A program made the translations under genes and the position numbers. From a virus: a stretch of 64,000 bases of DNA. The number at the start of each line of letters is the position of its first letter. Position 1 is the stretch's first letter. The stretch lies in IMG/VR virus record IMGVR_UViG_3300035034_002581. One strand, written 5' to 3'. The notes beneath the pieces are model-generated. The model worked only from the letters and a program-made list of their open reading frames with translations, did no database searches and was not told the origin of the DNA. Positions 195 to 57,631 of the stretch are shown here, piece after piece.

Positions 195-1079
195 TCATAA
201 TGCTTCCTTAATTTGATCTAAAAATTGTCTAGTAATGATCGGTACTATCGGATCGGTCAGGCTTTTGCTTTGAATCTCGCTTGAAAAGTTGTCTATCATG
301 ATTGCGACCGTATTTGTTGAATCAACTCCGCCTTGATAATTGATTTTGCAATCATCAATAAAATAGCTAGTCATATACTTGTTGATGTTTTCAGTATCTT
401 TTTTGATTAATGTTATGTGTGCAGTATATTCTACATCTTTAGAATCGCTATCACCAAAAAAAATACCGCATATTTTCATTGATAGAGTTAAAACGTCAGC
501 ATGAGGACCCTTTGTGTTTTGAGCATTGATATCGCTAACTGTTATGCGTTCTGATATACTGATGCTTCTTAACAAAGATATTGTCTTTGAAATATCGTGA
601 CAGAGTAGATTGTCAACAATATTTCCTCTTGTCTTCTGTTTAGTCCATTGATGGTGGATCTTAAACTTCTTAGGTGCTTTAAGTTTACGACAGAAATCAG
701 CTATCTTACTTGAATCCTTATCAAGTCCTCTATGATAGTTGATTGTCAAAGTCAGATCTTTTTTACGAGCTAACTCATAGAGTGAGATTAACTCTTCGGA
801 ACTTTGCGCGCCTGGCTTTTCAAGAAGAACATGTTTGCCATTTTGAAGCATTTTTCTTGCAACACATGATAGTTGATCGATAGGAACTGCGATGATTGCA
901 GCATCAAAATCTGCTTTTTCTAATTCTTCCATTGTTACCCATCGGATACCGCTTAAAAAGCTTTTCTGGGGGCTTCTGGATGCAATACAGACCACTTCTA
1001 CACCATCAGAATCGATTGCATTCTTCAGCATAATTTGAGCCCATCTTCCGGCTCCGATAATTATAGTCCTAACTGCCAC
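195..1079 (-). CDS. Gfo/Idh/MocA-family NAD(P)-dependent sugar oxidoreductase
   Basis: N-terminal IIGAGRWA Rossmann motif and conserved EKP motif (LLEKPGA) typical of the GFO_IDH_MocA family; 294 aa. Confidence 0.6.
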   Translation of the reverse strand: MAVRTIIIGAGRWAQIMLKNAIDSDGVEVVCIASRSPQKSFLSGIRWVTMEELEKADFDAAIIAVPIDQLSCVARKMLQNGKHVLLEKPGAQSSEELISLYELARKKDLTLTINYHRGLDKDSSKIADFCRKLKAPKKFKIHHQWTKQKTRGNIVDNLLCHDISKTISLLRSISISERITVSDINAQNTKGPHADVLTLSMKICGIFFGDSDSKDVEYTAHITLIKKDTENINKYMTSYFIDDCKINYQGGVDSTNTVAIMIDNFSSEIQSKSLTDPIVPIITRQFLDQIKEAL

Positions 1080-6985: not shown

Positions 6986-8413
6986 TTACAAAATTTTAGA
7001 AGCTAGAGTTGCAAGCTCAGATCGCTCTCCCTTAGGTAGGCGAATATGCCCAGCAATCTCTTCGCCTCTAAACCTATCAATTGTGATTGACAAACCGTTC
7101 GACAATTCGTCAAGGTAGGGAGTATCAATCTGTTCAACGTCACCGAGCAAAACAATCTTTGAGTTCTGCCCAACACGCGTAATCACAGTCTTCAGTTCAT
7201 GTATGGTCGCGTTTTGAGCTTCGTCAACGATGATAAATGCGTTGTTAAAGGTTCTACCCCTTATGTAAGGAAGTGGAGCTATTTCAATTTCATTCTTAGA
7301 TCTCATCGTTTCAAAATAAGCTGATCCATGCTCCGAGTCATTTGATCCATCTCTAAAGTTGTCAACTATGGGCTGAATCCATGGCGCCATCTTATCATTG
7401 AGATCTCCCGGTAGGAAGCCAAGATCTTTACCCACAGCTTGAATCGGCCTTGTTATAACGATTCGAGAAAACTTCCCATCATAGAATCCAGACAATCCTG
7501 CCATAAGTGCCAAGAAAGTTTTTCCAGAACCAGCGATTCCTGTAAGTGTCACTAGCTTGATTGCATCGTCTAGCAGCATGTCAATTGCAAAGGTCTGCTC
7601 TTTGTTCTTGGGCTTGACATTAACCATGTCATTCATTTTAGAGTTTGTTGCAAGTTGCAAGTGTCCCTTATGTGCTATCACAAGGCTGCTAGCGTTTTTG
7701 TTTATCTCGCCCTTAAATACTAAAGGCTCACATGGAAAAAAGCTATCCAGTGGTACGTCTATATCATAAAACGATACCCTTTTCTTGCTATGAAGCATAT
7801 TAATGACATCATCTGGAACAAACACTTCTCTGACATCATTTTGAATTGTCGATGGCTCTACTTTGTCTTTGTAGTAGTCTTCTGCCAATACATTAACAGC
7901 ATCACACTTGACTCTAAAGTTGATGTCCTTTGTGACCATTACGACTGTTCTATCTTTATAGAGCGAAGTAAGTGCATGCGCCATTAGGATTATTTTGTTG
8001 TCACCCTGAGAATTGTCAAAGTCAAGAGGCAGTGTTTTAGCCTCTTGCTCTAGATCAATATCTTTAGTTGAGAGCACCCTGATGTTGATGTCGTGCTCTT
8101 CGATATACACACCCTTCGACAAGCTACCTTTCGTTCTAAGACCATCAAGGTAACGATTGATATACCTTGCATTCTCTCCGACTAAACCCTTTCTTTCTTT
8201 GTGCCTGTCGAGTTCATCAAGGACGACCAGAGGTAAGGCAATGTCATTTCCTTTGAATGTGTGAATTGAGTGCTTATCGTATAGCAGAACTGACGTATCA
8301 ATTACAAAAATCTTTCGGTCATTTTCTTCTTTGTTCACGTGTACATTCCTGTTTTTTTGTTTAGGTTTAATGCATGGAGTCATAATAATGAAAGACAATA
8401 TCTTAAAGGACAC
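6986..8413 (-). CDS. phoH: PhoH2-type protein (N-terminal PIN-like domain + PhoH P-loop ATPase)
   Basis: Walker A LTGIAGSGKTFLALMAGL and Walker B/DEAQN region (IIVDEAQN) of the PhoH family; N-terminal KIFVIDTSVLLYD resembles a PIN domain; start is a non-ATG (GTG) codon per sequence. Confidence 0.8.
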   Translation of the reverse strand: MSFKILSFIIMTPCIKPKQKNRNVHVNKEENDRKIFVIDTSVLLYDKHSIHTFKGNDIALPLVVLDELDRHKERKGLVGENARYINRYLDGLRTKGSLSKGVYIEEHDINIRVLSTKDIDLEQEAKTLPLDFDNSQGDNKIILMAHALTSLYKDRTVVMVTKDINFRVKCDAVNVLAEDYYKDKVEPSTIQNDVREVFVPDDVINMLHSKKRVSFYDIDVPLDSFFPCEPLVFKGEINKNASSLVIAHKGHLQLATNSKMNDMVNVKPKNKEQTFAIDMLLDDAIKLVTLTGIAGSGKTFLALMAGLSGFYDGKFSRIVITRPIQAVGKDLGFLPGDLNDKMAPWIQPIVDNFRDGSNDSEHGSAYFETMRSKNEIEIAPLPYIRGRTFNNAFIIVDEAQNATIHELKTVITRVGQNSKIVLLGDVEQIDTPYLDELSNGLSITIDRFRGEEIAGHIRLPKGERSELATLASKIL

Positions 8414-8639
8414 TACCTGCTTTAATGAGCATGCTAAAAGAAGTTTATCATGCCAGAAATCATCGTGCAGGTGTTGGTTTAAAGATCAAGACAATTTAAA
8501 CTGTGTTTTACTTGCATCAAAAAATGGCCCACGAACTCTACAAGAGATCGGTGACCATTTCGGAATCACAAGAATGCGTGTATGCCAGATCGAAAAAAGC
8601 ATAACACAGAAGATAAGAAAAGAAGTCGAAAAAGACTAA
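8388..8639 (+). CDS. Small sigma-70 region 4-like HTH protein (stand-alone)
   Basis: TLQEIGDHFGITRMRVCQIEKSITQKIRK aligns well with sigma-70 region 4.2 consensus TLEEVG..F.VTRERIRQIE.KALRKLR; GGAG RBS 8 nt upstream of ATG at 8388; too short (83 aa) to contain region 2. Confidence 0.45.
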   Translation: MKDNILKDTTCFNEHAKRSLSCQKSSCRCWFKDQDNLNCVLLASKNGPRTLQEIGDHFGITRMRVCQIEKSITQKIRKEVEKD

Positions 8640-8648: not shown

Positions 8649-8993
8649 CTACTTCTTAGCTACAGTCTTTTTCTTGCTAGAAGTCTTCTTCGAAGGTGCT
8701 TTCTTAGCCGCAGTCTTCTTAGAAGCAGACTTTACAGGCTCAACCTTCTTCTCGGGCTCGGGAGTAGATTCAACCTTCTTCTCTGGAGCTTCTGCTTCTT
8801 TCTTTGCAGGCCTTGATACTACAGGCTTTTCAGGTACTTCTACCTCAGCCTTCTCCTTCTTTACTTCAACTACTTCTTTCTTTACAGAATCATCGGTTTT
8901 TTTGTGTCCAATTCTTCCTTTAGTAACTGTATGTGGTACTGTCGGGTCTAGATCAAAGTCTTTAATGTCTTTTAAAATGTGTCTACGGGCCAT
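8649..8993 (-). CDS. Lysine/alanine-rich basic protein with histone H1-like tail
   Basis: C-terminal KKTAAKKAPSKKTSSKKKTVAKK and repeated PEKK/AKK units; 114 aa. Confidence 0.4.
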   Translation of the reverse strand: MARRHILKDIKDFDLDPTVPHTVTKGRIGHKKTDDSVKKEVVEVKKEKAEVEVPEKPVVSRPAKKEAEAPEKKVESTPEPEKKVEPVKSASKKTAAKKAPSKKTSSKKKTVAKK

Positions 8994-9070
8994 TGGAAAT
9001 TAATCCTCCTAGTGATAAGTATTGCTTAAAAAGAAAAGCATGGAATAATTTCCATGCTTTTCTGTGTATG

Positions 9071-9437
9071 TGGTGGAGGCGGTGGGAATTGAACCCACGT
9101 CCAAAGCAACACTAATATCTAGTCATTCACAAGCTTAGTAAACATTTTTGAACAGTCAGTTTACAAGATCTGTCATCATTCTAACCCTCAAGCTAATGAA
9201 GTAAGCTTGACCACCCGTAGGGACTCCATTTAGTTTTTTGTTTTCGCAGGATTGCTACCTGTTATCTTAAGTTGAAAAACAAGGTCTTAAGAAACCCCGC
9301 CATTAAGCAGCTAGTGCTGTCTGGAAGTGTGAGTTGTTGTTTGCAACTAACGTTTTAAGCAAAGATTAAAGTCATTTACTCATTAGACTGCTTGCACTAT
9401 CAATTAGACTATCACCCTGTCGAAACCGGTGCGCCCC
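9071..9437 (-). ncRNA. ssrA: tmRNA (SsrA), one-piece, with encoded CCA
   Basis: Minus-strand 5' end GGGGGCGCACCGGTTTCGACAGGG resembles the tmRNA 5' acceptor/D region. The 3' end is ...GGTTCAATTCCCACCGCCTCCACCA (T-arm plus acceptor plus CCA). An internal tag ORF GCA AAC AAC AAC TCA CAC TTC CAG ACA GCA CTA GCT GCT TAA encodes ANNNSHFQTALAA (canonical ALAA ending) at 9303..9344. Confidence 0.8.
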
Positions 9438-9473
9438 CTTGCTCGTGTCACAAAAGTGACACGAGGTTTAAAG

Positions 9474-9692
9474 TTACTCTTCCTTAGCAGTCTTTGAAGC
9501 TGCCTTTCGAGCCTTATCATCAGCCAAAGACATCTTAACGACCTCTGAAGCCCACTTCTTAAGCTCTCTAAGACCCTTACGTGCTCTAGTACCCGCTGAC
9601 TTGTTTCCCTTAATAGCATTCTTGCGAACATCAAGATCAATCTTCTCAATCAAAACGCGCATCTCGTCCCATTTCTCAATTGTTGCAGACAT
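9474..9692 (-). CDS. Hc1-like (chlamydial histone H1-like) small basic DNA-binding protein
   Basis: 72 aa; KGNKSAGTRARKGLRELKKWASEVVK resembles Hc1 KGNKAAAQRVRTESIKLEKIAKVYRK; lysine-rich C-terminus. Confidence 0.4.
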   Translation of the reverse strand: MSATIEKWDEMRVLIEKIDLDVRKNAIKGNKSAGTRARKGLRELKKWASEVVKMSLADDKARKAASKTAKEE

Positions 9693-9750
9693 CGTTATAT
9701 CTCCTGTGTGTGCAATAAGCTATATATAACACGCTGAAGGAGAAAGTTAA

Positions 9751-11376
9751 TCACGTCTTTTGAATTGTGTCCTTAAAAGATTGCGGAAAGAGCTTTTTGT
9801 TCTGCCCGTAAAACCTTCCCCAATCTTCATCTAGAATGTACGTTATAGCTGTATCGTCAACACTTCTGATGCTTCTACCAACTGCCTGAACAATAACCTT
9901 GGCAGTTTGCGTCGGATACCACCAGGACCATTTGTGCATTCTTTTTCTGCAAAGCTTATCGCCAAGATATGGGAATGGAATCTTACACACGATCTGGAAT
10001 CGACTTGAATCACCCTTAAGGTCGACACCCTCTGTCATTGATGGAGAGATAAGAACTGTGGGTTTCTTGCCATTAATGTGCTTGTTAAGGATCTCTTCGC
10101 GATTATTGCTATCATGGATCAAGATCCTTCTACTTCTTAGAGCTTTCTTGATGTAGTGGGCAATCTTAAACGTGTGTGCATGAATAATGCCTTTTTCGTT
10201 TGGATGGTTTTCCAAAATTGCCTTAACAGCTTCTGCAAGTTTAGGAAGTGTTTCATCAATTCCGCCTCGACTCATTCTTCCCACAGGAGCATAAAGAATA
10301 GGTCTATTTGCAACGGGAAATGGCGAAGGGATTGAGATGAAAGCAACCTCATTCATTGGAATACCAAGTGACTCACAAAACGACTCGTGATCAAGGATTG
10401 TCGCAGACATCATAATGACCTTTTGACCCATCCTGAAGAGATACTGCTCTGAGAATGGTGCAACATCAATTGCTTTAAATTCAATTCTCCTCTTTGCTCG
10501 GCCTTCGCCCTGATTGATATTCATCACCCAGTTGTCTTTCTCATAGACACTAAGGAATGTTGACAACTTTGTCTTATGACCCTTTAACAGATCGATTTGT
10601 CGAGAAGTATTGCTGAACTCTGTGATCTTCTCTGCAAGTCCTTCGTACTTGGCCATAAGCATTTCAATATTTAGCAGATGAGAATTAAGCTTAGCCATAT
10701 ATGGACCCTTGATCCAGTCTAGACACTGCTTTTGAGTGTTGATATGCGGCATATCAATCTTTAAGACTTTCTGTGCAAAGTATTCAGACACAGAGATCTC
10801 AATGAATCGACTAAGTTCTGGCTCAATGTTATGTGCCTCATCAACAATAAGCACTTGACGTGGTTCTGTCTTACCCGAGAAGGTAGATTCGGTCATAAAA
10901 TAAGGAAAGTTTGTTACACTCTCTGGTGAGGCTAAGAATTCTGCCTTTGCCAATTTGTACTTGCAGTTAAAAGCACACGCCTTAAAGTGCTTTGAACTCT
11001 TGTCAGCACCCTTTAGCTCTTGTTGGCTTTCATTGCAATTCTTGTCTTTGTGAAAGTTACATCGGTAATTCGTGCTTGACTTAATAGAACGCATAGTTCC
11101 ACCAGCACCAGGACCAAAGTCTTTTACATACTGATCTTGAAGGATCTTCTGTGTTGTTAAGAAGTAAGCGCCAGGAAGAAAGCCTTCTTCAACAGCAAGC
11201 TGCTCTCTAAGTAGTCGGCCAAGTGTAAGGCCGACTCCAGACTTACCGCATCCAGTTCCAAGCTCAAGAATAACAAATCTCTTGCCGTTGTCAACAAGAT
11301 TTTCCATTGCAAAGCGAATCGCCTCATCCTGTTCTGCTCTCACAGTAGGATAAGGGAAGAATTTCTCAAAGTCCAT
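9751..11376 (-). CDS. DinG/XPD (Rad3)-family superfamily-2 helicase
   Basis: Walker A-like LGTGCGKSGV, DEAH box VLIVDEAHNI, and a Cys-rich insert (CNFHKDKNCNE...CAFNCKYK) consistent with the Fe-S domain of XPD/DinG helicases. Confidence 0.65.
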   Translation of the reverse strand: MDFEKFFPYPTVRAEQDEAIRFAMENLVDNGKRFVILELGTGCGKSGVGLTLGRLLREQLAVEEGFLPGAYFLTTQKILQDQYVKDFGPGAGGTMRSIKSSTNYRCNFHKDKNCNESQQELKGADKSSKHFKACAFNCKYKLAKAEFLASPESVTNFPYFMTESTFSGKTEPRQVLIVDEAHNIEPELSRFIEISVSEYFAQKVLKIDMPHINTQKQCLDWIKGPYMAKLNSHLLNIEMLMAKYEGLAEKITEFSNTSRQIDLLKGHKTKLSTFLSVYEKDNWVMNINQGEGRAKRRIEFKAIDVAPFSEQYLFRMGQKVIMMSATILDHESFCESLGIPMNEVAFISIPSPFPVANRPILYAPVGRMSRGGIDETLPKLAEAVKAILENHPNEKGIIHAHTFKIAHYIKKALRSRRILIHDSNNREEILNKHINGKKPTVLISPSMTEGVDLKGDSSRFQIVCKIPFPYLGDKLCRKRMHKWSWWYPTQTAKVIVQAVGRSIRSVDDTAITYILDEDWGRFYGQNKKLFPQSFKDTIQKT

Positions 11377-14358: not shown

Positions 14359-14435
14359 TGGTAGATCCCGCGAGGGTTGAACTCGCATCTGTCCGTTTAT
14401 GAGACGGGGGCTTTTACCTATTAAGCTAGGGATCC
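14359..14435 (-). tRNA. tRNA with CAT anticodon (candidate tRNA-Ile2 lysidine substrate, or Met)
   Basis: Cloverleaf read by eye: acceptor GGATCCC/GGGATCT, D GCTT/AAGC, anticodon loop CTCATAA, T-arm GCGAG-TTCAACC-CTCGC, encoded CCA; lies immediately downstream of tilS. Confidence 0.65.
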
Positions 14436-14448
14436 TCTTCTAACTATA

Positions 14449-15096
14449 TTAAGCTTTGACTTCTTGTTTCAAAAATGCTTCTTTTGTCTTCTTGTACAAG
14501 GTCTTGTGAAGTCCAGGATTGACAATCATAGCTTGTGGAACGATGTTGTGTCGAATATGATTTCTCATATATTTTGTGTCACAGTTGCTAGGATCAGTTA
14601 CAAACGGGACGTTCTTACGCCTGGCCCAATCGGAAAAATCCTTTTTCTTGGTGAGTAAGAACGGGCGGATAATATGTCTGCCTCTTTTGGCCGGGATTGT
14701 TTTTGGTTTTCCGTGCATAGCGGAAAAGATCCAGGTTTCAATTTGATCGTCCAGGTGATGACATGTAATTAGGGGAACATCGTCATAGATTTCAATTACA
14801 CTTTCAAAAAAAACGTATCTTGCATCACGCCACTCTGCCTCTGTTGACTTGCCAGGCTCTAGTTCACACTTGAAGAAGCCTACATGTAAAGGCAGACTAA
14901 ACCGATCAGCGTACTTCTTGACAAAATCCCTTGCCTTACTGCCATGCTCTGTACCATGATCAAAGTATGCAAGAATAACCTCTCTGCCACCAGCTTGCAA
15001 GAAGTCAACTACAGCCATAGAGTCAACTCCTCCAGAGCATGCAATAATTACCTTGTGAGGAATTTTACCAAGAATGTTGATCATACATACTTCCAA
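14449..15096 (-). CDS. tilS: tRNA(Ile)-lysidine synthetase (TilS)
   Basis: PP-loop SGGVDS motif (IIACSGGVDSMAV) and TilS-specific HHLDDQIET motif; 215 aa. Confidence 0.75.
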   Translation of the reverse strand: MEVCMINILGKIPHKVIIACSGGVDSMAVVDFLQAGGREVILAYFDHGTEHGSKARDFVKKYADRFSLPLHVGFFKCELEPGKSTEAEWRDARYVFFESVIEIYDDVPLITCHHLDDQIETWIFSAMHGKPKTIPAKRGRHIIRPFLLTKKKDFSDWARRKNVPFVTDPSNCDTKYMRNHIRHNIVPQAMIVNPGLHKTLYKKTKEAFLKQEVKA

Positions 15097-15642: not shown

Positions 15643-15736
15643 TGGTGTGCGGAGATGGATTCGAACCATCGACTACCTAGACTCCCACCGGTTAAGGCTA
15701 CATTCCACGTCTTCTACCAACTGAATTATCCGCACA
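15643..15736 (-). tRNA. tRNA-like gene, long (about 91 nt + CCA); isotype unresolved (long variable arm or intron?)
   Basis: Clear 7-bp acceptor GTGCGGA/TCCGCAC + A + CCA, T-arm GATGG-TTCGAAT-CCATC and D-loop AGTTGGTAG, but anticodon arm cannot be folded canonically by eye. Confidence 0.35.
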
Positions 15737-15920: not shown

Positions 15921-17858
15921 TTACGAATCACGCCAGAGGTTGTTTGCTGCGTAGGTCAGCACCTCTTCGGCACTTACTTCATTGTAGCCGTACTCTTCAA
16001 TGAGTGTCTTCACCATCTCATTGTACTTGCCCTTCTGCTCGTCGTCTCTGGTACGTGCCTTAGTCACAACACGTGCCATCTTGCGGACATTAGACATCAT
16101 GTAAGACTCGATAGCTTCCTTGAGAGGAGCGTAAGACGTGTAATCAACCGTTCCACCCTTTCTTACCGTGCGGAACATGTAGGAAGTTACATCCTGCCTG
16201 AATCCATCACGAGAGCTTCCTGTGATACCGATTTGCTCTTCGATAGATTGCATGAACTCTTCATCTGGGTAGCGCTCTTCTTTCGTAATGCTATCCTTGA
16301 GCATAATGTTGTTTGTATATGCCTCAGCGCTGTCAAGATACAACTCAAAGATATTCGCTGCATTCTCTTCAAATGCTGTGATGAAAGCCTTCGAGATTTC
16401 CTTTTCAAGCACACTTAGGTACTCTTCACGAATTGTCTTCTGAAGGAGACTTAGGTAACGTTCCTTGGATTCCTCGTTTGTGATTTGCTCCTTGACTTTT
16501 CGAATCATGGCATCAATTACGGAGATTGGTGTGATAACATCTTTGTCAGAAGTTGTCAAAGCGTCATCGATCGCCTTCATGATAAATCTAGTCGAAATAC
16601 CAGTCATACCCTCATTGTTAGCTTCTGCACGAAGATCCTTAATGTCAACCTTCTTGACATGCCCAGCCTCAATGACTTCTTCGCCATTGTAAAGCTTAAG
16701 CTTAGTCATTAGATCACACTTGTTACTTGGTGCAAGTCGCGTTAGAATCGAAAACATACTTGCAATTCTCAAAGTATGAGGTGCAATGTGTACGTCGAAG
16801 TCAGACTCTGCCATTCGCTTCTTGTAAATCTTGATCTCTTCATCGAGCTCAAGCACATATGGAACGTTGATCTTGACGATTCGGTCCATCACAGCTTCGT
16901 TTAAGTGATCTGACTTAAACTTGTTCCACTCTGCTTCGTTACAGTGTGATATGATAAACACATCATGATAAATCATGGGGTGCTTACCAGGTGCTGGAGA
17001 ATGCTTCTCCTGGGTAACTGTAATTGCTGGGTGGAGAAACTCAACTTCATTCTTAAAAATCTCTACGAATTCAACCAGACCTCTGTTTCCTACATTGAAA
17101 GCACCATTTAGAGACAAGATTCGAGGGTCGTCATCTGAATAGAGATCTAGCTTAGAAATGTCTTCCGAGCCGATCAAGATACTCACGTCCTGCGTGTTAG
17201 GATCAGTTGGAGGAACTACACCGACACCCTTTCGGCCTCGAGCAGAGAAGGATCCCTCAACTACCTCAAACTTTTCGTAGTCACCATCGTACTCTTCGAT
17301 TAGCTTCATTCTACAGATTGGGCACAAGTCTCCTTCGATATGAGCACCCAAAATCTCCTTGAATTCTGATCGTAAAGATCTAGGTACAAGGTGCAAAGGC
17401 TCCTCTCGGATTGGGCATCCCTTGAGGTAGTAATAAGGCTCGGCAGCTTCAAGTGCCTTCTTGACATGTTCTGTTAGCGCTGACTTACCCGCACCAACTG
17501 GTCCCATAAGCAAGAGAATCTGTCGACTCTCTTCTCCCTTTAGCGAGGCAGCCTTCAAGAACTTCATTAAGCGAGAAACTACTCTCTCGGCGCCATAAAA
17601 GTCCTTCTGGAAGAAGTCGTAAGTCTTTAACTTGTCCTCTTCGAAGAGCTTTCTAAATCTATCATTTGAGTCATCTAGCGTTTGAACGCCCTGAGACATA
17701 ATAGAATCATACACTCTGCTATGCGATAGCTTTGCGATGCGTGGATTCTCTTCAACAAGCTCAAGATATTCAATGAAGGTTCCTGACCACTTCTTGGCCT
17801 TTACCTTCTTCTTGTGCTTCTTAATAAGAGCAAGATAGTCTTTACGATTTGATGTCAT
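15921..17858 (-). CDS. prkA: PrkA-family serine protein kinase (YeaG-like, AAA+ N-terminal domain)
   Basis: 645 aa; P-loop LLLMGPVGAGKSALTEHVK and overall PrkA architecture. Confidence 0.8.
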   Translation of the reverse strand: MTSNRKDYLALIKKHKKKVKAKKWSGTFIEYLELVEENPRIAKLSHSRVYDSIMSQGVQTLDDSNDRFRKLFEEDKLKTYDFFQKDFYGAERVVSRLMKFLKAASLKGEESRQILLLMGPVGAGKSALTEHVKKALEAAEPYYYLKGCPIREEPLHLVPRSLRSEFKEILGAHIEGDLCPICRMKLIEEYDGDYEKFEVVEGSFSARGRKGVGVVPPTDPNTQDVSILIGSEDISKLDLYSDDDPRILSLNGAFNVGNRGLVEFVEIFKNEVEFLHPAITVTQEKHSPAPGKHPMIYHDVFIISHCNEAEWNKFKSDHLNEAVMDRIVKINVPYVLELDEEIKIYKKRMAESDFDVHIAPHTLRIASMFSILTRLAPSNKCDLMTKLKLYNGEEVIEAGHVKKVDIKDLRAEANNEGMTGISTRFIMKAIDDALTTSDKDVITPISVIDAMIRKVKEQITNEESKERYLSLLQKTIREEYLSVLEKEISKAFITAFEENAANIFELYLDSAEAYTNNIMLKDSITKEERYPDEEFMQSIEEQIGITGSSRDGFRQDVTSYMFRTVRKGGTVDYTSYAPLKEAIESYMMSNVRKMARVVTKARTRDDEQKGKYNEMVKTLIEEYGYNEVSAEEVLTYAANNLWRDS

Positions 17859-17913
17859 TTACTTTCTCCATTTCAATTTAATCTTACAAAGTAGTTCTAT
17901 ATGTGTTTCACAT

Positions 17914-27397: not shown

Positions 27398-27451
27398 AGG
27401 GGTTGCGATGGGAATATGTGTAAAAACTCACACTTCATCATCGCAACCCCT
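27398..27451 (-). terminator. Strong hairpin (13-bp perfect stem AGGGGTTGCGATG/CATCGCAACCCCT), probable terminator downstream of PP2C gene
   Basis: Perfect inverted repeat seen directly in sequence. Confidence 0.45.
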
Positions 27452-27622
27452 ACAAATCTGTAACATAGACGACTTTAGTTACTAGAACATCCTTAATTTC
27501 AAATCTCTAAAGAGAGAACGAATCGAACTTTCACTTTACAAAGAGAGGTCAAAACCCACTCAATCTGTCGCTTTATACTATGTCACAAAAATGGAATCTT
27601 CTTTAGAAAAATTACAGAAACG

Positions 27623-30024: not shown

Positions 30025-30101
30025 TGGGGTCCATGACGAGGATCAAACTCGCAACCTCCGGGGACACAACCCAGCGCTCTTTCACTTGAGCTTCATGAAC
30101 C
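30025..30101 (-). tRNA. tRNA-His (anticodon GTG) with encoded G-1 opposite C73
   Basis: Extra 5' G before acceptor GTTCATG, discriminator C, anticodon loop TTGTGTC. Confidence 0.65.
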
Positions 30102-41997: not shown

Positions 41998-43225
41998 AAA
42001 GGACTTGCTTTAAAGTATGAACGATCTCTACGAGATCTTTTTGTGCTGCCATTACATCATCAATCTCTTTGTATGCTGCAGGTGTCTCGTCGATAACACT
42101 CTTATCCTTCTTGCATTCAACACCCTCAGTTGCATCACGGTGCATCTTTAGTGTGAAGGTCTTGCGTGCTTCACCTCTAGACATTTTTCTTCCTGCTCCG
42201 TGGCTACAAGAATCGAAAGATTCCTTGTTACCCAATCCACGAACGACGTAAGACTTATCTCCCATCGAGCCAGGAATGATACCGAGCTTACCCTTTGCAG
42301 CACACACAGCACCCTTTCTTGTCAAGATCACATTCTTTCCGAAGTGCTTTTCACGGGAGATGTAGTTGTGGTGGCAGTTAACTGCAGTCAAGGATGCATT
42401 GAACTTACGCTTAAGTACCTTCTTCATTGCCGCTATGACCTGATCCATCATCAGTTCACGGTTGACTCTAGCATAGTTCTGTGCCCATTCAACAGCCTCA
42501 ACGTAATCGTTGAAGTGTGCAGTACCTTCAGGCAAATATGCAAGATTCTCGTCCTTCAAGTTGATGAAGTGACGTCTCATATCTTCCTTGGCAAGTCGGA
42601 TAAAGTAGCTACCAATTTTGTTTCCAATACCACGTGAGCCTGAGTGGAGCATGACCCAGACTCTGTTACTCTCGTCGAGGCAAACTTCGATGAAGTGATT
42701 CCCAGTTCCCAACGTTCCTAGGTGACGGAATGTATTACCGCCTGCAACTTTAGGATGCTTAGCAACGATGCTATTAAACGTTACTTCAAGTTCAGACCAC
42801 GCATTCGCCTGTGCTACTGGGATCTTGTTCTCATCCCAACCGCCCTTATCATACTTTCCTCCATTGTTTGTCCTGCCGTGTGGAACAGCAGCTTCAATAG
42901 CAGTACGCATTGCTTTCAAACTAGAAGGCAGATCCTCAGCAGTTAGATCAGTCATTGCTGCACACATGCCGCATCCGATGTCAACTCCAACTGCGGCAGG
43001 AATTACTGCTCCGACAGTCGGAATGACGCTACCAACAGTAGCTCCCATACCCCAGTGAACGTCAGGCATAGCTGCAATCCACTTGTGAATGAAAGGCATT
43101 TCTGCAGCATTAATTAGCTGTTGCTTTGCAGCATCTTCAACAGGGACACCTTTTGTCCACATCTTGATTAGACCCTTCTCAGTCTTTAAAATTTCATAGT
43201 TTGATTTGTTCTTGCTGTTTGACAT
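41984..43225 (-). CDS. rtcB: RtcB-family RNA 3'-phosphate/2',3'-cyclic phosphate ligase
   Basis: 413 aa; conserved RtcB metal/GTP-binding motifs (MGATVGSV, GCGMCAA, HSGSRGIGNKIGS, NCHHNY, SCSHGAGR). Confidence 0.85.
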   Translation of the reverse strand: MSNSKNKSNYEILKTEKGLIKMWTKGVPVEDAAKQQLINAAEMPFIHKWIAAMPDVHWGMGATVGSVIPTVGAVIPAAVGVDIGCGMCAAMTDLTAEDLPSSLKAMRTAIEAAVPHGRTNNGGKYDKGGWDENKIPVAQANAWSELEVTFNSIVAKHPKVAGGNTFRHLGTLGTGNHFIEVCLDESNRVWVMLHSGSRGIGNKIGSYFIRLAKEDMRRHFINLKDENLAYLPEGTAHFNDYVEAVEWAQNYARVNRELMMDQVIAAMKKVLKRKFNASLTAVNCHHNYISREKHFGKNVILTRKGAVCAAKGKLGIIPGSMGDKSYVVRGLGNKESFDSCSHGAGRKMSRGEARKTFTLKMHRDATEGVECKKDKSVIDETPAAYKEIDDVMAAQKDLVEIVHTLKQVLCVKG

Positions 43226-46673: not shown

Positions 46674-48485
46674 TCACTTTCTTGACGAAATCATCTGTTT
46701 TAAGACATTCCGCAAGAAAGCTTCAGACATGTTGTCTGTTGTGTTTAAGTAAGCTTCTACTTCTGCTTTGTCAAGTGCCTTTCCAAGCTCGCCACCCTTG
46801 ATGCCTTGTGCCATAAGATCTTTTGCACTTGACGCAGGCGGGCTTTCTGCAAAACTAACAAACTTACGGGCATCAGACGGGCTGAGAGAAGAAGATGGCG
46901 AATTGTTTGAAAAATCGATCACGTCCTGGCTCGAAAGCTTGTACTTCTTTCCAAACTTGATGTATTCTTTCTTTAAGTTCACAACATTATTGATGTCAAT
47001 TGAGCTTAATCGGATCAAGAAAGAAACGATGTCACCAACTGAATTCTTAAATCGCATTCTCTTCAACGTCTTCAGGGTGGCTGACGGATCATTAGCTGAC
47101 AACATTGTAGCAATTTGAACCTCAATACTTCCACCTAGAGAAATTCCACTCTCAGGACCCAGAACCCTCAGCCCAGGAAATATTTGGTCAGTTACAGAAA
47201 GTTCAACTGCCCAATCAATGTACTCTAGCGGATCTACTGCGGTGAGAATGCCCTTTACAAACTCATCTTGAATTCGGTCAGGAGACACACCCTTTAGGCC
47301 GCTCTTTGCTACCTGAGTAACAGCGTCTTCGGTCTCTTGATCAAGTCTTGATCCCATTCTCGCAGCAAATCTTATCGCTCGTAGCACACGAAGTGGATCT
47401 TCATTAAATCTTTCAATGGGATTGCCTACTGCACGAATCACTCTGTTTTTGATGTCTTCAATGCCACCTACGAGGTCAACAATTTCTTTCTCATCAATAT
47501 CGTAAAAAAGTGCGTTAACTGTGAGATCTCTTCTTTTAACATCGTCTTCGATAGAGGCCCACCTAACTTCGTCAGGACGCCTACCAGATCCAATATCTTC
47601 ACGGAATGTAGCGATCTCGTACTCGTTACCTTCGTCAGTCCAAACACGAACAACACCAAAGTCCTTGCCTGTTAGATCGATCTTAAAGTTGAGATTTGAC
47701 AGCACTTCAATTACACGGTCGGGTGTAAGATCAGTTGCAAGGTCATAGTCCTTTGGCGTTTTGTTCAGAAGTGTATCCCTAACAGCGCCACCAACTACAA
47801 AGAGGTCGCCGTATCTTTTAATTACATTGTGGATCGCAATGAGATCTTCTGGTAGATCCATTGACATGGGCCTTCGAATCTCTTCACTCTCTTTGATCAT
47901 AGAACTCATTTTTGACTCTTTAAGATCGAGGATGTCTTGATAGTTACAATTTGCAATCTTTTGAAACCTTTCCACTGGGTGCCCAACGCCTTCGACTCCA
48001 TAAAAATCAGCAGCATTTTCAAATGAACTTAAGTGATGATGCCTATCATCCCAAAAGTGAGCTTCTGATATCACTGGATGTTGTGCAAGGATCTTTTTAA
48101 TCTGTGACACCTTAAAGGATTCTGTGTCATTGGTCGTTTTCAAGTATACAGCGTCAAAATTAAGACCAGCTTGATGCAAAAGTTCAGCAACTCTGTATCT
48201 AATTGCGGCATTTGAGTTCGGCCTCCCAGTCATTAACACACAGAGAATGTTAGGATCAGCAATTGATTGCTTAGCCAAAGCAACAATCTCAGTATTCCAC
48301 CAATCCTTACTCGGAACTTCAGGAACACAAGGCTCAGATAAAGAAGCTGGGTAAGTCCACCAGCGACCAGGACCTTTATGTGCAGGCCAATCTGTTGGGT
48401 AAGTTGGACTTCCGAAAAGTGTTCCATCGAAGTCAAAAACATGAAGTATTAGTGTCATCTTGGTATCTCTGTAATTGATCCGCAA
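46674..48485 (-). CDS. Fusion protein: N-terminal HAD-superfamily (polynucleotide 3'-phosphatase-like) domain + class II tRNA nucleotidyltransferase (CCA-adding enzyme) head/neck
   Basis: HVFDFDGTLFG (HAD motif I) and HFWDDR (motif IV) in first about 190 aa; then LFVVGGAVRDTLL, DYDLATDLTP (DxD) and RRDLTVNAL motifs diagnostic of class II CCA-adding/polyA polymerase family. Confidence 0.75.
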   Translation of the reverse strand: MRINYRDTKMTLILHVFDFDGTLFGSPTYPTDWPAHKGPGRWWTYPASLSEPCVPEVPSKDWWNTEIVALAKQSIADPNILCVLMTGRPNSNAAIRYRVAELLHQAGLNFDAVYLKTTNDTESFKVSQIKKILAQHPVISEAHFWDDRHHHLSSFENAADFYGVEGVGHPVERFQKIANCNYQDILDLKESKMSSMIKESEEIRRPMSMDLPEDLIAIHNVIKRYGDLFVVGGAVRDTLLNKTPKDYDLATDLTPDRVIEVLSNLNFKIDLTGKDFGVVRVWTDEGNEYEIATFREDIGSGRRPDEVRWASIEDDVKRRDLTVNALFYDIDEKEIVDLVGGIEDIKNRVIRAVGNPIERFNEDPLRVLRAIRFAARMGSRLDQETEDAVTQVAKSGLKGVSPDRIQDEFVKGILTAVDPLEYIDWAVELSVTDQIFPGLRVLGPESGISLGGSIEVQIATMLSANDPSATLKTLKRMRFKNSVGDIVSFLIRLSSIDINNVVNLKKEYIKFGKKYKLSSQDVIDFSNNSPSSSLSPSDARKFVSFAESPPASSAKDLMAQGIKGGELGKALDKAEVEAYLNTTDNMSEAFLRNVLKQMISSRK

Positions 48486-48931
48486 ATATCAACAGGATCG
48501 ATTGTCTCAAAGTCGCTTAATAGAAAATCATTTGAGTCTCTAGGTTTCGCGTCTAATTCTGGGTTGATTGCAATTGTAACGTGAGGAAAGTTAGGTCCCT
48601 TCATCGGGACTGGAAAGTTTGACGTATCAACAAAAGCCGTGATTATTTTATCATTTCGAGCGATCTTAGTTACTTTCAAACACTCATCGGCGCCGAGCCA
48701 CCTAGGAGGAGTTCTAAAACTCTTTCCCTGCTCAACGGGAGAAATGATGGTCATATGATGGCTATTAACTTTCCATCCTTGCGGCGCGAGAGACGCTAAT
48801 TTGCTTTGAGAATCTTCGTCTAGAACAAATGCTGTATAGTAGATCGACTTATCAGGGTTTAAGGTCATTTCCCTCAATAGTGCTCTTACTACTTCTCTAA
48901 CTAAACTAGACATTAATCTAACCCTAGGCAA
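48455..48931 (-). CDS. Hypothetical protein
   Basis: 158-aa ORF. Confidence 0.35.
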   Translation of the reverse strand: MPRVRLMSSLVREVVRALLREMTLNPDKSIYYTAFVLDEDSQSKLASLAPQGWKVNSHHMTIISPVEQGKSFRTPPRWLGADECLKVTKIARNDKIITAFVDTSNFPVPMKGPNFPHVTIAINPELDAKPRDSNDFLLSDFETIDPVDICGSITEIPR

Positions 48932-53965: not shown

Positions 53966-54169
53966 AGATATTCTCTGGAGAATATGCTTATTACAGCTGT
54001 ATTTTTTTCGCTCACGCCAGAAGCAGAAAAGAAGACCTCAATAGCGCCTAAGCTATTGGATCTTCTACTTCTTGAGTGTGTTGACAAAAATGTATTTTTG
54101 ATCTTATAAGACATGCCCAAATTTTACAGCAATGGCACGAATTGTATCAACCAACGTCTAGATCAAAGA

Positions 54170-54496
54170 TTAGAGCGCAGGAACGTGGAAATTGACACGC
54201 TCATAGCCCATTTCTTCGACAGATGCAAGCGCCTGCTTAAACGTAAGAGTTCTTGCAGCTTGACGATCGTGACCAGAAAGCCAAACAGCAGGTATTCCAT
54301 CCTGGGGTATAATCACAATTGTGCCATTGTTGACAGCGTAAGTACCCGGAGTTTCGTCCTTAAGCATCGCAATAGACTCGTCTTGGTCCGGAAAACGATC
54401 TAGACGAGTAAATCCCGTAGGCACAGAAACCTCAGACAATACACGCTGGAGTTCTTCTCTAATAATCTGCTGAATTCTGGTCTTCTTGAGCTGCAT
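54170..54496 (-). CDS. IIKEEL-motif family protein
   Basis: Starts MQLKKTRIQQIIREELQRVLSEV. Confidence 0.5.
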   Translation of the reverse strand: MQLKKTRIQQIIREELQRVLSEVSVPTGFTRLDRFPDQDESIAMLKDETPGTYAVNNGTIVIIPQDGIPAVWLSGHDRQAARTLTFKQALASVEEMGYERVNFHVPAL

Positions 54497-54550
54497 TTGT
54501 ATTTCCTCACGATGTTAGTACTATATATGTTACAACATAAGCTAGTTAAG

Positions 54551-54883
54551 CTATGAAGCTATTTGTGTGATAACACTTGACATCAATAAATAAGACAAGA
54601 TAAAAGCATCAACATTCTCTCCTGTTGTAACAATCAAAAACACGTCTTTCGACATCAGGTCGTACGTAAGCGGAAAACTCGGATACATTCGACAACCAGT
54701 CCTCAACCCAATTTTCAGAACAATGCCCCATTGTTTTGATTTATCAGCTGGTCTCATTAGGTTTCTAACCTGTATTAAATCTCCGGCTCTTATAGACCCA
54801 CTATTGTTATGCACAACGTCCAGCTGTCGATATTGAGTATGTAACCAATCAAACCACTCACCATTGTGTTCGATTTTCGTCAT
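54551..54883 (-). CDS. Member 1 of tandem paralog array (GDLI...WGIV family)
   Basis: IRAGDLIQVRNL...QWGIVLKIGLRTGCRMYPSFPLTYDLM. Confidence 0.4.
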   Translation of the reverse strand: MTKIEHNGEWFDWLHTQYRQLDVVHNNSGSIRAGDLIQVRNLMRPADKSKQWGIVLKIGLRTGCRMYPSFPLTYDLMSKDVFLIVTTGENVDAFILSYLLMSSVITQIAS

Positions 54884-55389
54884 TGTGCACCGATGTGCCC
54901 TTTAAAACCGACGTGATAGGGCACATTTATTTCGACACAATTCGTAGGGAACGAAACTTTCCCGGCCAGCGTAAAAAATATGATCTGGCTCGTGCGTACA
55001 CTCAAAGCACGAAAAGAAATCAATGAGATTGGTTCTAGTGTACTGAGGCTCTCATCTGATGTAGCATCCGCTAAAACATCCGTTCTTCTCATCTCAAGCA
55101 CCATAAGCCAGTTTGGTTCATAGCCAAACATCGACAGAAAGTCGAAATTCCAGGAGGTAATAGTATTTGTTGTAAAGAGGTTTTTTGCATCATATTTTAC
55201 TGGCCACTCGGAAATTCTAAACATCGCATCGAAAACGAGCGGAAAAACTATTTGAAGCAAATCACCCTTATTGACCTGAACTAAACGTCGATCTCTGGGC
55301 GCAATATTGTACATTGTGTTGCCTTTTTCGACGCTCTTAGGCTCTTGAATCAGGATCGAGTCAAGCGAGTTTGTGACAAGGTCAATCAT
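54880..55389 (-). CDS. Member 2 of tandem paralog array (more divergent)
   Basis: ATGA start/stop overlap with neighbour; KGDLLQIVFPLV. Confidence 0.35.
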   Translation of the reverse strand: MIDLVTNSLDSILIQEPKSVEKGNTMYNIAPRDRRLVQVNKGDLLQIVFPLVFDAMFRISEWPVKYDAKNLFTTNTITSWNFDFLSMFGYEPNWLMVLEMRRTDVLADATSDESLSTLEPISLISFRALSVRTSQIIFFTLAGKVSFPTNCVEINVPYHVGFKGHIGAQ

Positions 55390-55688
55390 TTCGACACCAC
55401 TTCGAGATCAACCAGTTCGACGACAAAAAACATGTCCCGCTTTCCAAATTGACTGACAAAAGTGACAAACAGGTTTCGATTCATCTCGTCTAGTGTGAGA
55501 GGTGGGTCGGGATAGCGACAATGGGTCTTCACTCCGATCTCACACACAATACCAAGCCCAGCAGGCTTGAGAAGGTTCCAGTTGTACACAAAACGTATGA
55601 GGTCTCCGGGTTTAACCTCTTCACCGAACAAATATGCTGACTCGACATGGAGACAGTCATCAGTCAGCATGAACAACATCCAGGACAC
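55386..55688 (-). CDS. Member 3 of tandem paralog array
   Basis: KPGDLIRFVYNW...GLGIVCEIGVKTHCRYPDPPLTLDEM closely parallels member 1. Confidence 0.4.
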   Translation of the reverse strand: MSWMLFMLTDDCLHVESAYLFGEEVKPGDLIRFVYNWNLLKPAGLGIVCEIGVKTHCRYPDPPLTLDEMNRNLFVTFVSQFGKRDMFFVVELVDLEVVSK

Positions 55689-56103
55689 GCAAGTGATGCG
55701 TAAACAATTTGACGCGCGTATCTGCTTCCGGGAGATGCCCCGCAGTCAATATCTGGATAAGCTCAACGTTGAACACCGATCGACCATTACTGGCCATGCC
55801 GTTGAAGTAACTCAATCCAAACGAGTCAGCGTCAATCCCGGTGCAATGCTTTTGACAACCGAGCATGATACCCGAGATTTGGCGTCGCTCCTCGAGGACT
55901 TCCGGGAGACGCTGCTGATCAGACATGCTAGCCGGATAAAATTTCTGCTTGACGATCTCAAACCTGACAAAATCTCCGACACTGATTTTTTCAAACTCAG
56001 CCTGGTGCCGACCCAACGCATCAGATGGCCACTCAGAATCAACATGACGTGTGGCCGCGCTGGAGCGAACAATCAAGCAGAATTGATCTGAACGTTGTCT
56101 CAT
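55660..56103 (-). CDS. Member 4 of tandem paralog array
   Basis: ISVGDFVRFEIV...SGIMLGCQKHCTGI. Confidence 0.35.
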   Translation of the reverse strand: MRQRSDQFCLIVRSSAATRHVDSEWPSDALGRHQAEFEKISVGDFVRFEIVKQKFYPASMSDQQRLPEVLEERRQISGIMLGCQKHCTGIDADSFGLSYFNGMASNGRSVFNVELIQILTAGHLPEADTRVKLFTHHLRVLDVVHAD

Positions 56104-56576
56104 TTTTGACCTCCATTTTCCGAAGACTTGATGACATGGGCTACTCGAAGATATGCATTGTTCCAGGTCACCCGATGTTTGCTGCCAAGAAGGAGTCTAA
56201 GATTGTATTCGCCATTTTCGGATTTGGCAATCTTGGGATTGAGATTGAGATCGGGATTGTCATATTCAAATGAAAGAAAAATGCTGTGCACAATTCCCCA
56301 TTGAAAATTCAGCAGTCTTAGGCCTGCTGAATCTATCTGTCCTTTCTTAGCATTTCTAACAGCATTGTCCCACAGAGGGTCGTAGTACACGAAGTAGATC
56401 ACATCACCTTTCTCGACAACTGCCAGCTCATCAAGGTACGCATTTTTTGCACCCACAGTCTTTGTTAGACTTTCATCAACCAGCCTGAACTGAACTGCGG
56501 CTTTGGGCGAAGTTTGTGTCATGTCAAGTCTGTTCCATGAAAGAATAGAACTTCGTCCTCTCTGTAACCATCGCAC
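56100..56576 (-). CDS. Member 5 of tandem paralog array
   Basis: VEKGDVIYFVYYDPLWD...QWGIVHSIF. Confidence 0.35.
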   Translation of the reverse strand: MRWLQRGRSSILSWNRLDMTQTSPKAAVQFRLVDESLTKTVGAKNAYLDELAVVEKGDVIYFVYYDPLWDNAVRNAKKGQIDSAGLRLLNFQWGIVHSIFLSFEYDNPDLNLNPKIAKSENGEYNLRLLLGSKHRVTWNNAYLRVAHVIKSSENGGQK

Positions 56577-56726
56577 TTCACCATGTCTCCTTGCCGGAGA
56601 GAGAGGATGGGGTTGAACGTAAAGTCCCGCTACATGTCAGAAAAGAATACACTGGTGGGTGTGGGTGAGATAAGTCGAATTTCGATACTATTCTGCTACT
56701 ATTACTAATAACTTTAACTCTCTGCA

Positions 56727-57179
56727 TCACTCAACCCCAGACGTTGTGATTACTTTTGCAATGACAATATTTCTCAGGTATTTTCCGTCTATAATACCTG
56801 AGTTAGCGCTGACAAGTCGAGCAAAAGAGTAGGTAGCGACGATTGGATTTGAAATTAATGTGCTAGGCACCGCTGGGGGCATCCGTGGCCCCCGGTTCCA
56901 CCACGGCAAAAATACTGCTGTTAAGATACCCCAACTAAACGCAGCTGACTTGTTGATGTCGACAATATAATCCGATCTCGATTTGTTACGCTCTTTTATA
57001 GTGTAATAACTTGCTGTGTTTGCATAGTAAATTAAGTCTCCGACGAAAATACCAATTGCATTCGAGTGCTCTGGATCTTGATTAGTCTTCACATCACTCC
57101 ATGTTTGAATGTCGTCGTCTGGAAATATAACTCTGCGCTTAAAACCGATAAATTCGACGTTTGCAGTCTTTGAACTCAT
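56727..57179 (-). CDS. Member 6 of tandem paralog array
   Basis: IFVGDLIYYANT...SWGILTAVF. Confidence 0.35.
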   Translation of the reverse strand: MSSKTANVEFIGFKRRVIFPDDDIQTWSDVKTNQDPEHSNAIGIFVGDLIYYANTASYYTIKERNKSRSDYIVDINKSAAFSWGILTAVFLPWWNRGPRMPPAVPSTLISNPIVATYSFARLVSANSGIIDGKYLRNIVIAKVITTSGVE

Positions 57180-57631
57180 GATCTACTCTGCGGTACATGT
57201 GTCTTGATCAGCATATTGCCAAGCCTTTTAATGCTTTTTTTGCCGGTGACACTGTTGACAAAGATAATATGTTTGTGCTGTTTGTCCTGCGTGATCAGGT
57301 CAGTGAGCCTGCTGTTCCGAACAATTACACTGTGGACAATTCCCCAAGTTAGGACGGCTGAATCTAGACCATGGTAGATGAAGTCACGAAACCCGATGAA
57401 CTCGATCATGTCTCCCACAAAAATCCGAGGGAAATTATCATCACCAGGACATGACCCACCGCGTATTAAGTCGTCGAACTGTTTTTCGCTGCGAGTAAGC
57501 ACAGTAAACTGATCCTTTTTCCAAAGTTCTGGCGCAATCACATGTGCAACGAAAGAGTCAGTCAGCATTCCGTATCCTGTCCTAAAGCTTGAGAAGGTGT
57601 AAAGTGTACTCCTACAATCATTATATTGCAA
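57176..57631 (-). CDS. Member 7 of tandem paralog array
   Basis: IFVGDMIEFIGF...TWGIVHSVI. Confidence 0.35.
   Translation of the reverse strand: MQYNDCRSTLYTFSSFRTGYGMLTDSFVAHVIAPELWKKDQFTVLTRSEKQFDDLIRGGSCPGDDNFPRIFVGDMIEFIGFRDFIYHGLDSAVLTWGIVHSVIVRNSRLTDLITQDKQHKHIIFVNSVTGKKSIKRLGNMLIKTHVPQSRS

Follow-up and report, generated by a model that had tools for sequence, protein, structure and literature searches.

Why would a virus carry a gene for an RNA that rescues ribosomes? The question is raised by 64,000 nucleotides of viral DNA, IMG/VR record IMGVR_UViG_3300035034_002581 (this whole stretch is called the window below), in which a first-pass annotation made from the sequence alone had noticed a gene for transfer-messenger RNA (tmRNA, or SsrA). 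From the sequence and its relatives it is very likely that the tmRNA gene, which is of the one-piece type, is functional and belongs to an uncultivated jumbo phage. What the virus might gain from it is a question with more tentative answers.

A full-length tmRNA gene

ARAGORN reports one tmRNA in the window, a one-piece gene of 368 nt on the minus strand (9071-9438) whose tag, ANNNSHFQTALAA*, is encoded by RNA positions 95-136. On the same interval, Rfam cmscan matches the full RF00023 model (positions 1-374); the match scores 119.8 bits (E = 3e-46), where the gathering score is 47. The gene is of the standard kind rather than the permuted one, both by the ARAGORN call and because RF00023 is its best match within the Rfam clan. 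The remaining primary features can be read directly off the sequence: a 7-bp acceptor stem, GGGGGCG/CGCCUCC, in which the third pair is G3:U362, the identity element for alanine; an encoded ACCA end (9071-9074); and a GCA resume codon, preceded by UUAGUU, that opens a frame of 13 sense codons closed by UAA. The bases before the resume codon are conserved as UUAGUU or UUAAUU and correspond to the frame-setting nucleotides of Escherichia coli tmRNA.

Is the call beyond chance? ARAGORN and Rfam agree, and the same gene with compensatory changes is found at more than 100 related loci, so that the gene is a genuine full-length tmRNA, far beyond chance. The tRNA-like ends, the GCA resume codon, and the tag ending in ALAA and a stop had all been described in the first-pass annotation, which had proposed ARAGORN and Infernal with Rfam as checks; both tools and the sequence itself bear it out, the tag to the letter. 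Its coordinates, 9071-9437, marked the right locus but fell one base short at the 5′ end, and it gave no strand.

Fold and covariation

Homologues were gathered through a neighboring PhoH/PIN protein and scanned for tmRNAs, and 20 distinct copies were aligned with MAFFT. The whole-gene alignment misaligned the columns of the pseudoknots PK1, PK3, and PK4; PK1 was therefore judged on a sub-alignment and the modules by a pseudoknot finder run on each sequence. Across the 20 copies, 74.6% of the whole structure is paired, compared with 37 to 54% when the partners are slid by one to three columns, and double changes are seen at most pairs of the well-aligned helices (acceptor, T arm, H2a, H2d, PK2, and the terminal stem). 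The acceptor stem is paired in 98.6% of cells, with both-side changes at three pairs and the G:U pair invariant in 20 of 20 copies. The T arm, also with three such pairs, is paired throughout (100%). In helix 2, segment 2a (20-27/330-337) is 95.6% paired with six covarying pairs, and segment 2d (43-49/305-311) is 98.6% paired.

PK1 lies between helix 2 and the resume codon. In the sub-alignment it is 84% paired against 28 to 43% in the slid controls, and 9 of its 11 pairs change on both sides; sequence by sequence, it is present in 18 of the 19 homologues evaluated, with its loop geometry mostly unchanged. PK2 recurs in most relatives with loops of 0-1/0/6-9, and its first and second stems are 95% and 88% paired, with many double changes. 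Selection on the tRNA-like domain with its G3:U pair, on helix 2, and on PK1 and PK2 is supported by this covariation. An alternative second stem for PK2 (154-161/176-182) was set aside, as it calls for sterically implausible loop lengths and covariation favors 140-146/153-159.

The rest of the 3′ domain is more variable. Among relatives, the first stem of PK3 switches from CAGG/CCUG to GUGG/CCAC, and the second is a covarying 6-bp stem (UUGAUC/GAUCAA, UUGGUC/GACCAA, or UUAAUC/GAUUAA). The position of pk4 is taken by two tandem pseudoknot-like modules, whose real scores were reached by 1 and 4 of 200 shuffles, respectively. Analogous modules recur there in relatives with different sequences, and the terminal stem (275-280/296-301; 81% paired, six of six pairs changing on both sides) provides the sole clean covariation at this position. 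Over all the pseudoknot modules, between 1 and 15 of 200 shuffles per region reached the real score; the weakest by this measure is PK2 (15/200), for which the finder, being unable to trim stems, picked a different second stem. Every module can form and the Rfam score lies above its threshold, where impossible pseudoknots or an Infernal score below threshold had been named in the first-pass annotation as evidence that would count against it. The loops share a layout published for tmRNA pseudoknots in general (PMC1168896): the two connectors on the 5′ side are very short and the single one on the 3′ side is long. Accepted tmRNAs differ in how many pseudoknots they have and how large these are (PMC1168896).

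A viral lineage with its own tags

How widespread is this RNA? The lineage is marked by a signature, UGUGAAUGAC, in the 3′ strand of helix 2. A search pattern that joins UGUGAAUGAC to the T arm, with exact matches required, occurs on at least 120 IMG/VR viral contigs. Among 185,579 species-representative genomes it occurs on 14 contigs, all of them in metagenome-assembled genomes (MAGs), and the UGUGAAUGAC motif is on no contig of a cultured isolate in that set. The labels of the 14 MAG contigs (L081-L094) are incongruent, including Woesearchaeota, Pelagibacter TMED166, Halobacteriovorax, Methylococcaceae TMED69 (306 kb), Flavobacteriales, Dehalococcoidia, and others. Nine of them give the same tag families as the viral contigs and two show the same phage synteny; the 14 are probably misbinned contigs of jumbo phages. 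An exact-match pattern would miss a bacterial donor whose motif differs slightly, and such a donor lineage may exist.

Most tags fall into two families, ANNNxHFExx(R/A)LAA, to which the ANNNSHFQTALAA of the window belongs, and ANDNVE(Y/F/V/L)DYALAA, and both have a conserved aromatic middle. In most of about 75 related tags the reading frame, the AN(N/D) start, and the (A/R/Q)AA-stop end are kept despite length changes by whole codons, a pattern which indicates that the coding part of the tag is under selection. Structure and tag frame are conserved across the lineage, so selection has maintained the tmRNA in viruses, and it was not recently captured from a host.

Some members give aberrant ARAGORN calls with insertions or unusual tags (L024, at 8163-8568, and L104, L125, L134, L141, and L163). 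Examples are a long frame in L024 and GDYQPTYAYAA at RNA position 166; they may reflect variation in the RNA or an error in calling the resume codon. Three more distant PhoH loci (L077, L078, and L080) encode a permuted two-piece tmRNA, unrelated to the lineage of the window, about 1.6 to 2 kb from PhoH and with a long tag, G(N/T)SL(V/M)EYATRLHA...VAIAA.

The replicon

What kind of DNA carries the gene? The window has 42% G+C, with nearly all genes on the minus strand. A second IMG/VR contig of 110 kb (3300035698_022074) is 99 to 100% identical over the region and has an identical tmRNA, and a PhoH/PIN protein at 45 to 54% identity is found on about 60 other viral contigs, which reach 318 kb in length. 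PhoH has a match among the PHROG phage families, as does a helicase near the tmRNA, whose full length is covered by a phage helicase PHROG (E = 6e-112) and which has its nearest cultured homologues in jumbo phages: Tunturiibacter phage Tunturi_5 (36%) and Bacillus phage G (32%). ARAGORN finds 38 tRNA genes between 14359 and 39838, all on the minus strand and with arrays at 28-33 kb and 37-40 kb, and reports no suppressor anticodon among them; Rfam adds four tRNA matches (15646-15735, 25250-25308, 25324-25396, and 30028-30100). The phage assignment of the first-pass annotation is upheld by these contigs, PHROG matches, jumbo-phage homologues, and tRNA genes, and the replicon is very probably, by sequence comparison, that of an uncultivated jumbo phage. 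The phage and the related contigs are probably of marine origin.

No DNA similarity to cultured phages was found among 50,697 phage records (blastn with the tmRNA and megablast with the first 20 kb), which argues that a close cultured relative is absent. A weak PHROG match to the terminase large subunit (E = 8e-5) lies under the P-loop of PhoH.

What the tmRNA would do, and how firmly this can be held

The proposed cycle would run as follows. (i) The tmRNA would be transcribed with, or just behind, the gene for a basic Hc1-like protein upstream, and its 5′ end trimmed by host RNase P. (ii) Host alanyl-tRNA synthetase (AlaRS) would charge it with alanine by way of the G3:U pair, the CCA end being already encoded. 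(iii) Host SmpB and EF-Tu would deliver it to ribosomes that stall when an mRNA is broken or lacks a stop codon. (iv) Translation would resume at GCA and append ANNNSHFQTALAA, whose ...ALAA-COOH end would suit ClpXP-like proteases; a C-terminal LAA is the element read by proteases of the ClpX type. (v) The ribosome would terminate at UAA and then be recycled. The phage may benefit by being able to rescue more ribosomes at a time when host mRNA is broken down or nucleases attack the translation apparatus. Such a benefit fits with what else the same 64 kb encode: about 40 tRNAs, the RNA ligase RtcB, a further RNA ligase, a CCA-adding/HAD enzyme, and an RF1-like release factor.

Which of the partners would the phage bring along? 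No gene for AlaRS or EF-Tu was found on the phage DNA examined. For the first-pass annotation, the tmRNA pointed to a phage with its own ribosome-rescue machinery, along with a PTH2 gene and a gene like that of ArfB (described below). The tmRNA is real, but no SmpB was found and a complete rescue machine is not visible; nor did Pfam on about 80 window open reading frames (ORFs), or tblastn with PTH2 and Pth queries, find PTH2 or Pth in the window.

Several observations weigh against a functional tmRNA of phage origin. Neither the window nor 2.5 Mb of related loci gave an SmpB in tblastn of limited sensitivity (E. coli and Bacillus subtilis queries, the SmpB query having been checked against PDB 6q98), and Pfam found none among the same ORFs of the window. 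Unless the SmpB gene lies elsewhere in the genome, the RNA would have to use SmpB of the host, and function would then hinge on host SmpB accepting it. SmpB is needed for the RNA to work; classing the RNA as a tmRNA does not depend on it. The Rfam posterior probability is low across the region from PK2 to PK4. PK3 is marginal in the window copy, at 4 + 3 bp, and a possible hairpin at the stop codon (H5, 129-133/138-142), which competes with the first stem of PK2 for overlapping positions, lacks covariation support, with 49 to 58% of cells pairing across homologues. Finally, virion hallmark genes were not found in the 64-kb window (PHROG, 20 proteins, mostly without Pfam matches), so that the phage assignment rests on relatives and on membership of the collection.

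A fuller account can be built around the proposed rescue role, although as a whole it is rather unlikely. Here, the tmRNA would be one element of a phage-borne kit that keeps host ribosomes running, long held in an abundant and probably marine group of jumbo phages. It would be a phage-specific RNA lineage, acquired once and since diversified into tag families, and the 3′ end of the transcript for a nucleoid protein would be its source of expression. Its partner would be an RF1-like factor without domain 1, whose synthesis is gated by a +1 frameshift at UAG that would sense RF1 activity. With RtcB, an RNA ligase, and a CCA-repair enzyme at its side, the tmRNA would counter host defenses that cleave mRNA, tRNA, or rRNA.

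Could the tag serve another purpose? The suggestion in the first-pass annotation that the phage may use its tag to modulate proteolysis is speculative. A phage-specific tag might replace that of the host and route rescued proteins to, or away from, a protease or adaptor, or form part of a stalled-ribosome circuit that times lysis. The lineage does have tag types of its own with a conserved aromatic middle, and PMC7162821 mentions phage sensing of stalled ribosomes via tmRNA. We nevertheless consider this improbable: the LAA or AA at the C terminus is retained, which argues for ordinary degradation, and among about 80 window ORFs Pfam identified no phage protease or adaptor.

A further step down in likelihood is a decoy, an RNA that mainly titrates host SmpB (or AlaRS or EF-Tu) and so shuts down trans-translation in the host. 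A precedent exists in mycobacteriophage DS6A, whose molecule consists only of the tRNA-like domain (TLD) and has been discussed for its inhibitory potential (PMC4131195), and a decoy would be in keeping with a phage on which no SmpB was found in the DNA examined. A TLD alone would suffice for that purpose, however, whereas the resume context, frame, LAA-type end, PK1, and PK2 are all conserved across the lineage with compensatory changes, which argues for selection on tagging itself.

The least credible alternative is a host ssrA on a bacterial or prophage-junction contig, in keeping with the frequent use of tmRNA genes as phage integration (att) sites, the 14 signature matches in MAGs labelled as bacteria, and the lack of a virion gene in the window, but hard to reconcile with a full-length gene instead of a 3′ att fragment, a gene order shared by 21 viral contigs, whose proteins are about 50% identical and whose flanking genes lie on the same strand, mutually incongruent MAG labels with phage synteny on two of the contigs, clustered tRNA genes, and no rRNA, ribosomal protein, or SmpB genes found nearby. 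The segment is best read as a tmRNA gene that belongs to the phage and serves in ribosome rescue.

Surroundings of the tmRNA gene

Coordinates of the tmRNA, its parts, and the neighboring elements are collected in Table 1.

Table 1. Features of the tmRNA gene and of related loci in the window
Feature	RNA positions	Window coordinates	Strand	Details
tmRNA (ssrA) gene		9071..9438	(-)	Encoded CCA end; ARAGORN and Rfam; identical copy in IMG/VR 3300035698_022074
Acceptor stem, 5′ strand	1-7	9432..9438	(-)	GGGGGCG; pairs with RNA 358-364 (9075-9081)
Helix 2, 5′ strand	20-49	9390..9419	(-)	Partners RNA 305-337 (9102-9134)
PK1	50-83	9356..9389	(-)	Stems 50-53/66-69 and 57-64/76-83; pseudoknot finder against shuffles
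Tag reading frame	95-136	9303..9344	(-)	Resume codon GCA; ANNNSHFQTALAA; stop UAA
PK2	138-174	9265..9301	(-)	Stems 138-146/153-161 and 147-153/168-174; covariation scan
PK3	178-208	9231..9261	(-)	Stem 178-181/189-192 and weak 3-bp stem 182-184/206-208
Two tandem pseudoknot-like modules, pk4 position		9138..9210	(-)	
First module at pk4 position	229-263			229-235/245-251 and 240-244/259-263
Second module at pk4 position	265-301			265-269/284-288 and 275-280/296-301
T arm	341-357	9082..9098	(-)	GUGGG-UUCAAUU-CCCAC; loop of the GUUCRANNC type
Intrinsic terminator, 3′ of tmRNA		9028..9063	(-)	14-bp hairpin, then UUUU; RNAfold -19.4 kcal/mol
10-bp hairpin		9442..9465	(-)	CUCGUGUCAC UUUU GUGACACGAG; between Hc1 stop codon and tmRNA 5′ end
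Hc1-type histone-like gene		9474..9692	(-)	72 amino acids; directly upstream, co-oriented; Pfam PF07432, E = 4e-13
RF1-like gene		26367-27045	(-)	17 kb from tmRNA; called ORF 26367-26888; frame junction ~26930-26950

In 21 related IMG/VR loci the gene order is GroEL-like, RNaseH-like, orf155, orf80, Hc1, tmRNA, one to three variable genes, and PhoH/PIN; the order of Hc1 followed by tmRNA is also the one seen on the two MAG contigs. Compared with these relatives, the window has a helicase gene inserted before Hc1, the 10-bp hairpin added between Hc1 and the tmRNA, and a strong terminator after it. The hairpin is absent from the relatives, and the terminator is not conserved in them. In most relatives the 5′ end of the tmRNA lies 3 to 37 nt past the Hc1 stop codon, a space too small for a promoter, which suggests that the tmRNA precursor is co-transcribed with Hc1 and processed by RNase P. 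Adjacency to Hc1 was rejected as a general rule; it characterizes the 21 PhoH-linked loci, whereas of 90 others that have this type of tmRNA just 10 show it, and it is specific to a subclade.

The tmRNA had been placed between two histone-like genes in the first-pass annotation. This is right for the upstream gene, while the downstream one (8649-8993), a lysine-rich ORF of 114 amino acids that is not conserved in relatives, has no family match in Pfam, PHROG, and other profile scans.

In relatives that lack the tmRNA (e.g., L007 at 9665-10001, L050, and L062), Hc1, a terminator, and a small antisense helix-turn-helix gene stand at the same spot. The antisense gene has a conserved motif, RMRICQIEK, that resembles sigma-70 region 4. 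At least two contigs without a tmRNA at this spot carry one elsewhere.

An RF1-like gene with a UAG frameshift site

What of the gene described as ArfB-like? An ArfB has about 140 amino acids, made up of a GGQ domain and a basic tail at the C terminus. The called ORF, which encodes a GGQ protein, matches best to residues 162-327 of RF1, with 154 bits, followed by RF2 (96), PrfH (66), and ArfB (40, against a cut-off of 100 for NF006718), all of these scores being below their cut-offs. The ORF includes a PCRF fragment, and further RF1 domain-2 sequence lies in an upstream frame. By these matches the ArfB assignment does not stand, and the gene is read as an RF1-type class-I release factor without domain 1, split by a +1 frameshift.

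The upstream frame, MSTVIIEIRAGEGGDDAKDLVNKQFEIYKKVALRRSF, ends at an in-frame UAG, and the +1 frame continues with SCQIVSNG...GGHRWQRIPPNDKKGRVHTS...GPGGQ. The junction reads GGAGG-UCA-UUU-UAG-C, that is, a Shine-Dalgarno-like element, a 3-nt spacer, a slippery run, the stop codon, and C. Two viral relatives (L096 and L097; 43 to 44% protein identity) have AAGGAG-CAU-CUU-UAG-C at the same place. The tripeptide that reads the stop codon is PPN in the window and PPT in these relatives. The layout is that of the prfB frameshift site (PMC12421855), from which the site in the window differs in having UAG, an RF1-specific stop. Among the 12,753 genomes of a 2025 survey, prfA had no programmed frameshift and TAG did not occur in the motif of prfB (PMC12421855); neither a role in sensing RF1 activity nor a UAG-gated frameshift for bacterial prfA or prfB was found in that survey. 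The UAG frameshift site on an RF1-like gene is the most unusual by-product of the analysis.

Between the RF1-like gene and one for a PP2C-like phosphatase lie about 730 nt (26890-27620) with no ORF of more than 85 amino acids on either strand, apart from the 5′ frame of the release factor.

Other genes of the window

An RNA-repair set occupies 41984-43225, 46674-48485, 48455-48931, and 58796-59824. It includes RtcB, a CCA-adding/poly(A) polymerase head fused to the HAD domain of the "Swiss army knife" RNA-repair proteins, a weak match to the cyclic phosphodiesterase of tRNA ligase, and an RNA ligase. At 14359-15096 is a gene for a 215-amino-acid protein that has only the N-terminal PP-loop domain of TilS, the lysidine synthetase. 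It lies 13 nt from a tRNA gene with the anticodon CAT, which, from this proximity, could be tRNA-Ile2 rather than tRNA-Met. Genes for DnaJ and a GroEL-like protein are also present. Taken with RtcB, the RNA ligase, the CCA-adding/HAD enzyme, and the TilS-like and RF1-like proteins, they suggest that the phage may keep the translation apparatus in working order during infection or against nuclease-based defense.

Three further observations concern the rest of the window. (i) The gene at 33631-36309 (minus strand) encodes an 892-amino-acid protein with a Major Vault Protein shoulder (E = 1e-26), Vault_3 repeats, and a weak SPFH/Band 7 match, and with no match in PHROG; on a contig of phage type, such a vault-like protein is unexpected. 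(ii) At 15921-20434 (minus strand), PrkA (AAA + kinase), SpoVR-like, and DUF444 genes stand in a row, each with E < 1e-110 and with an overlap of 86 nt between the ORFs called for SpoVR and DUF444; the row corresponds to the bacterial stress-response trio yeaG-yeaH-ycgB. (iii) From 54000 to 64000 the G+C content rises from about 40% to 46-50% and gene orientation is mixed, and the ORFs tested there have no Pfam match except the RNA ligase.

Comparison with known tmRNAs

Phage tmRNAs as such are already known. Full-length ones occur in Bacillus phage G and in the cluster C mycobacteriophages (Bxz1, Cali, Catera, and others) (PMC4131195, PMC12484599), and according to Al-Shayeb et al. 2020 (PMC7162821), metagenomic huge phages of more than 200 kb carry tmRNAs, tRNAs, release factors, and other translation genes. 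The statement in the first-pass annotation that tmRNAs are uncommon in phages holds for cultured phages, but it has to be set against these documented cases (PMC4131195, PMC7162821) and a lineage of the size found here. The gene of the window, taken alone, is a textbook tmRNA and holds no surprise for a specialist. In the literature searched, the arrangement of Hc1, tmRNA, and PhoH, the tag families, and the lineage itself in its size and coherence appear to be undescribed; the arrangement, the lineage signature, and the tag families go unmentioned in the searched text of PMC7162821 and PMC9123017, and in the searched text of the latter, a survey of marine jumbo phages, tmRNA is not mentioned at all.

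Why does this matter? Phage-encoded tmRNAs are recognized, yet essentially unstudied in function. The lineage offers a defined family in which to ask why a virus needs a rescue RNA, whether it depends on host SmpB, and how its tag compares with that of the host; a match between the two could also serve as a marker for host prediction. Novelty could lie in the neighboring translation-repair genes, especially the RF1-like gene with its UAG-gated +1 site.

Like phage G and the cluster C mycobacteriophages, the window combines a full-length tmRNA with many tRNAs on a large genome, of the myovirus type in those phages (PMC4131195, PMC12484599), and the helicase of phage G is, at 32%, among the nearest cultured homologues of its own. 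It differs from both in having no DNA similarity to them, LAA-type tags, and its own synteny; the tag of phage G is AKLNITNNELQVA, and the tmRNA gene of that phage lies away from the helicase (PMC12484599). With the huge phages it shares the same general phenomenon, although SmpB is reported on some of those (PMC7162821) and was not found here.

The RNA of the window agrees with the standard one-piece bacterial tmRNA (RF00023; E. coli SsrA) in its tRNA-like domain and G3:U pair, in a long helix 2, in having PK1 ahead of the resume codon and further pseudoknots 3′ of the tag, in a short tag that closes with ALAA and a stop, and in its encoded CCA. It departs from that standard in a 3′ domain that is off consensus, with a minimal PK3 and two small tandem pseudoknots at pk4, in a helix 2 that carries UGUGAAUGAC, and in its residence on a viral replicon with no adjacent smpB. 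Tags of cyanobacterial tmRNAs also begin with ANN. In one-piece cyanobacterial tmRNAs, too, pk4 is replaced by two smaller tandem pseudoknots, pk4a and pk4b (PMC1168896), a likeness of architecture only. Cyanobacterial tmRNAs have no pk3 (PMC1168896), whereas the lineage of the window keeps it.

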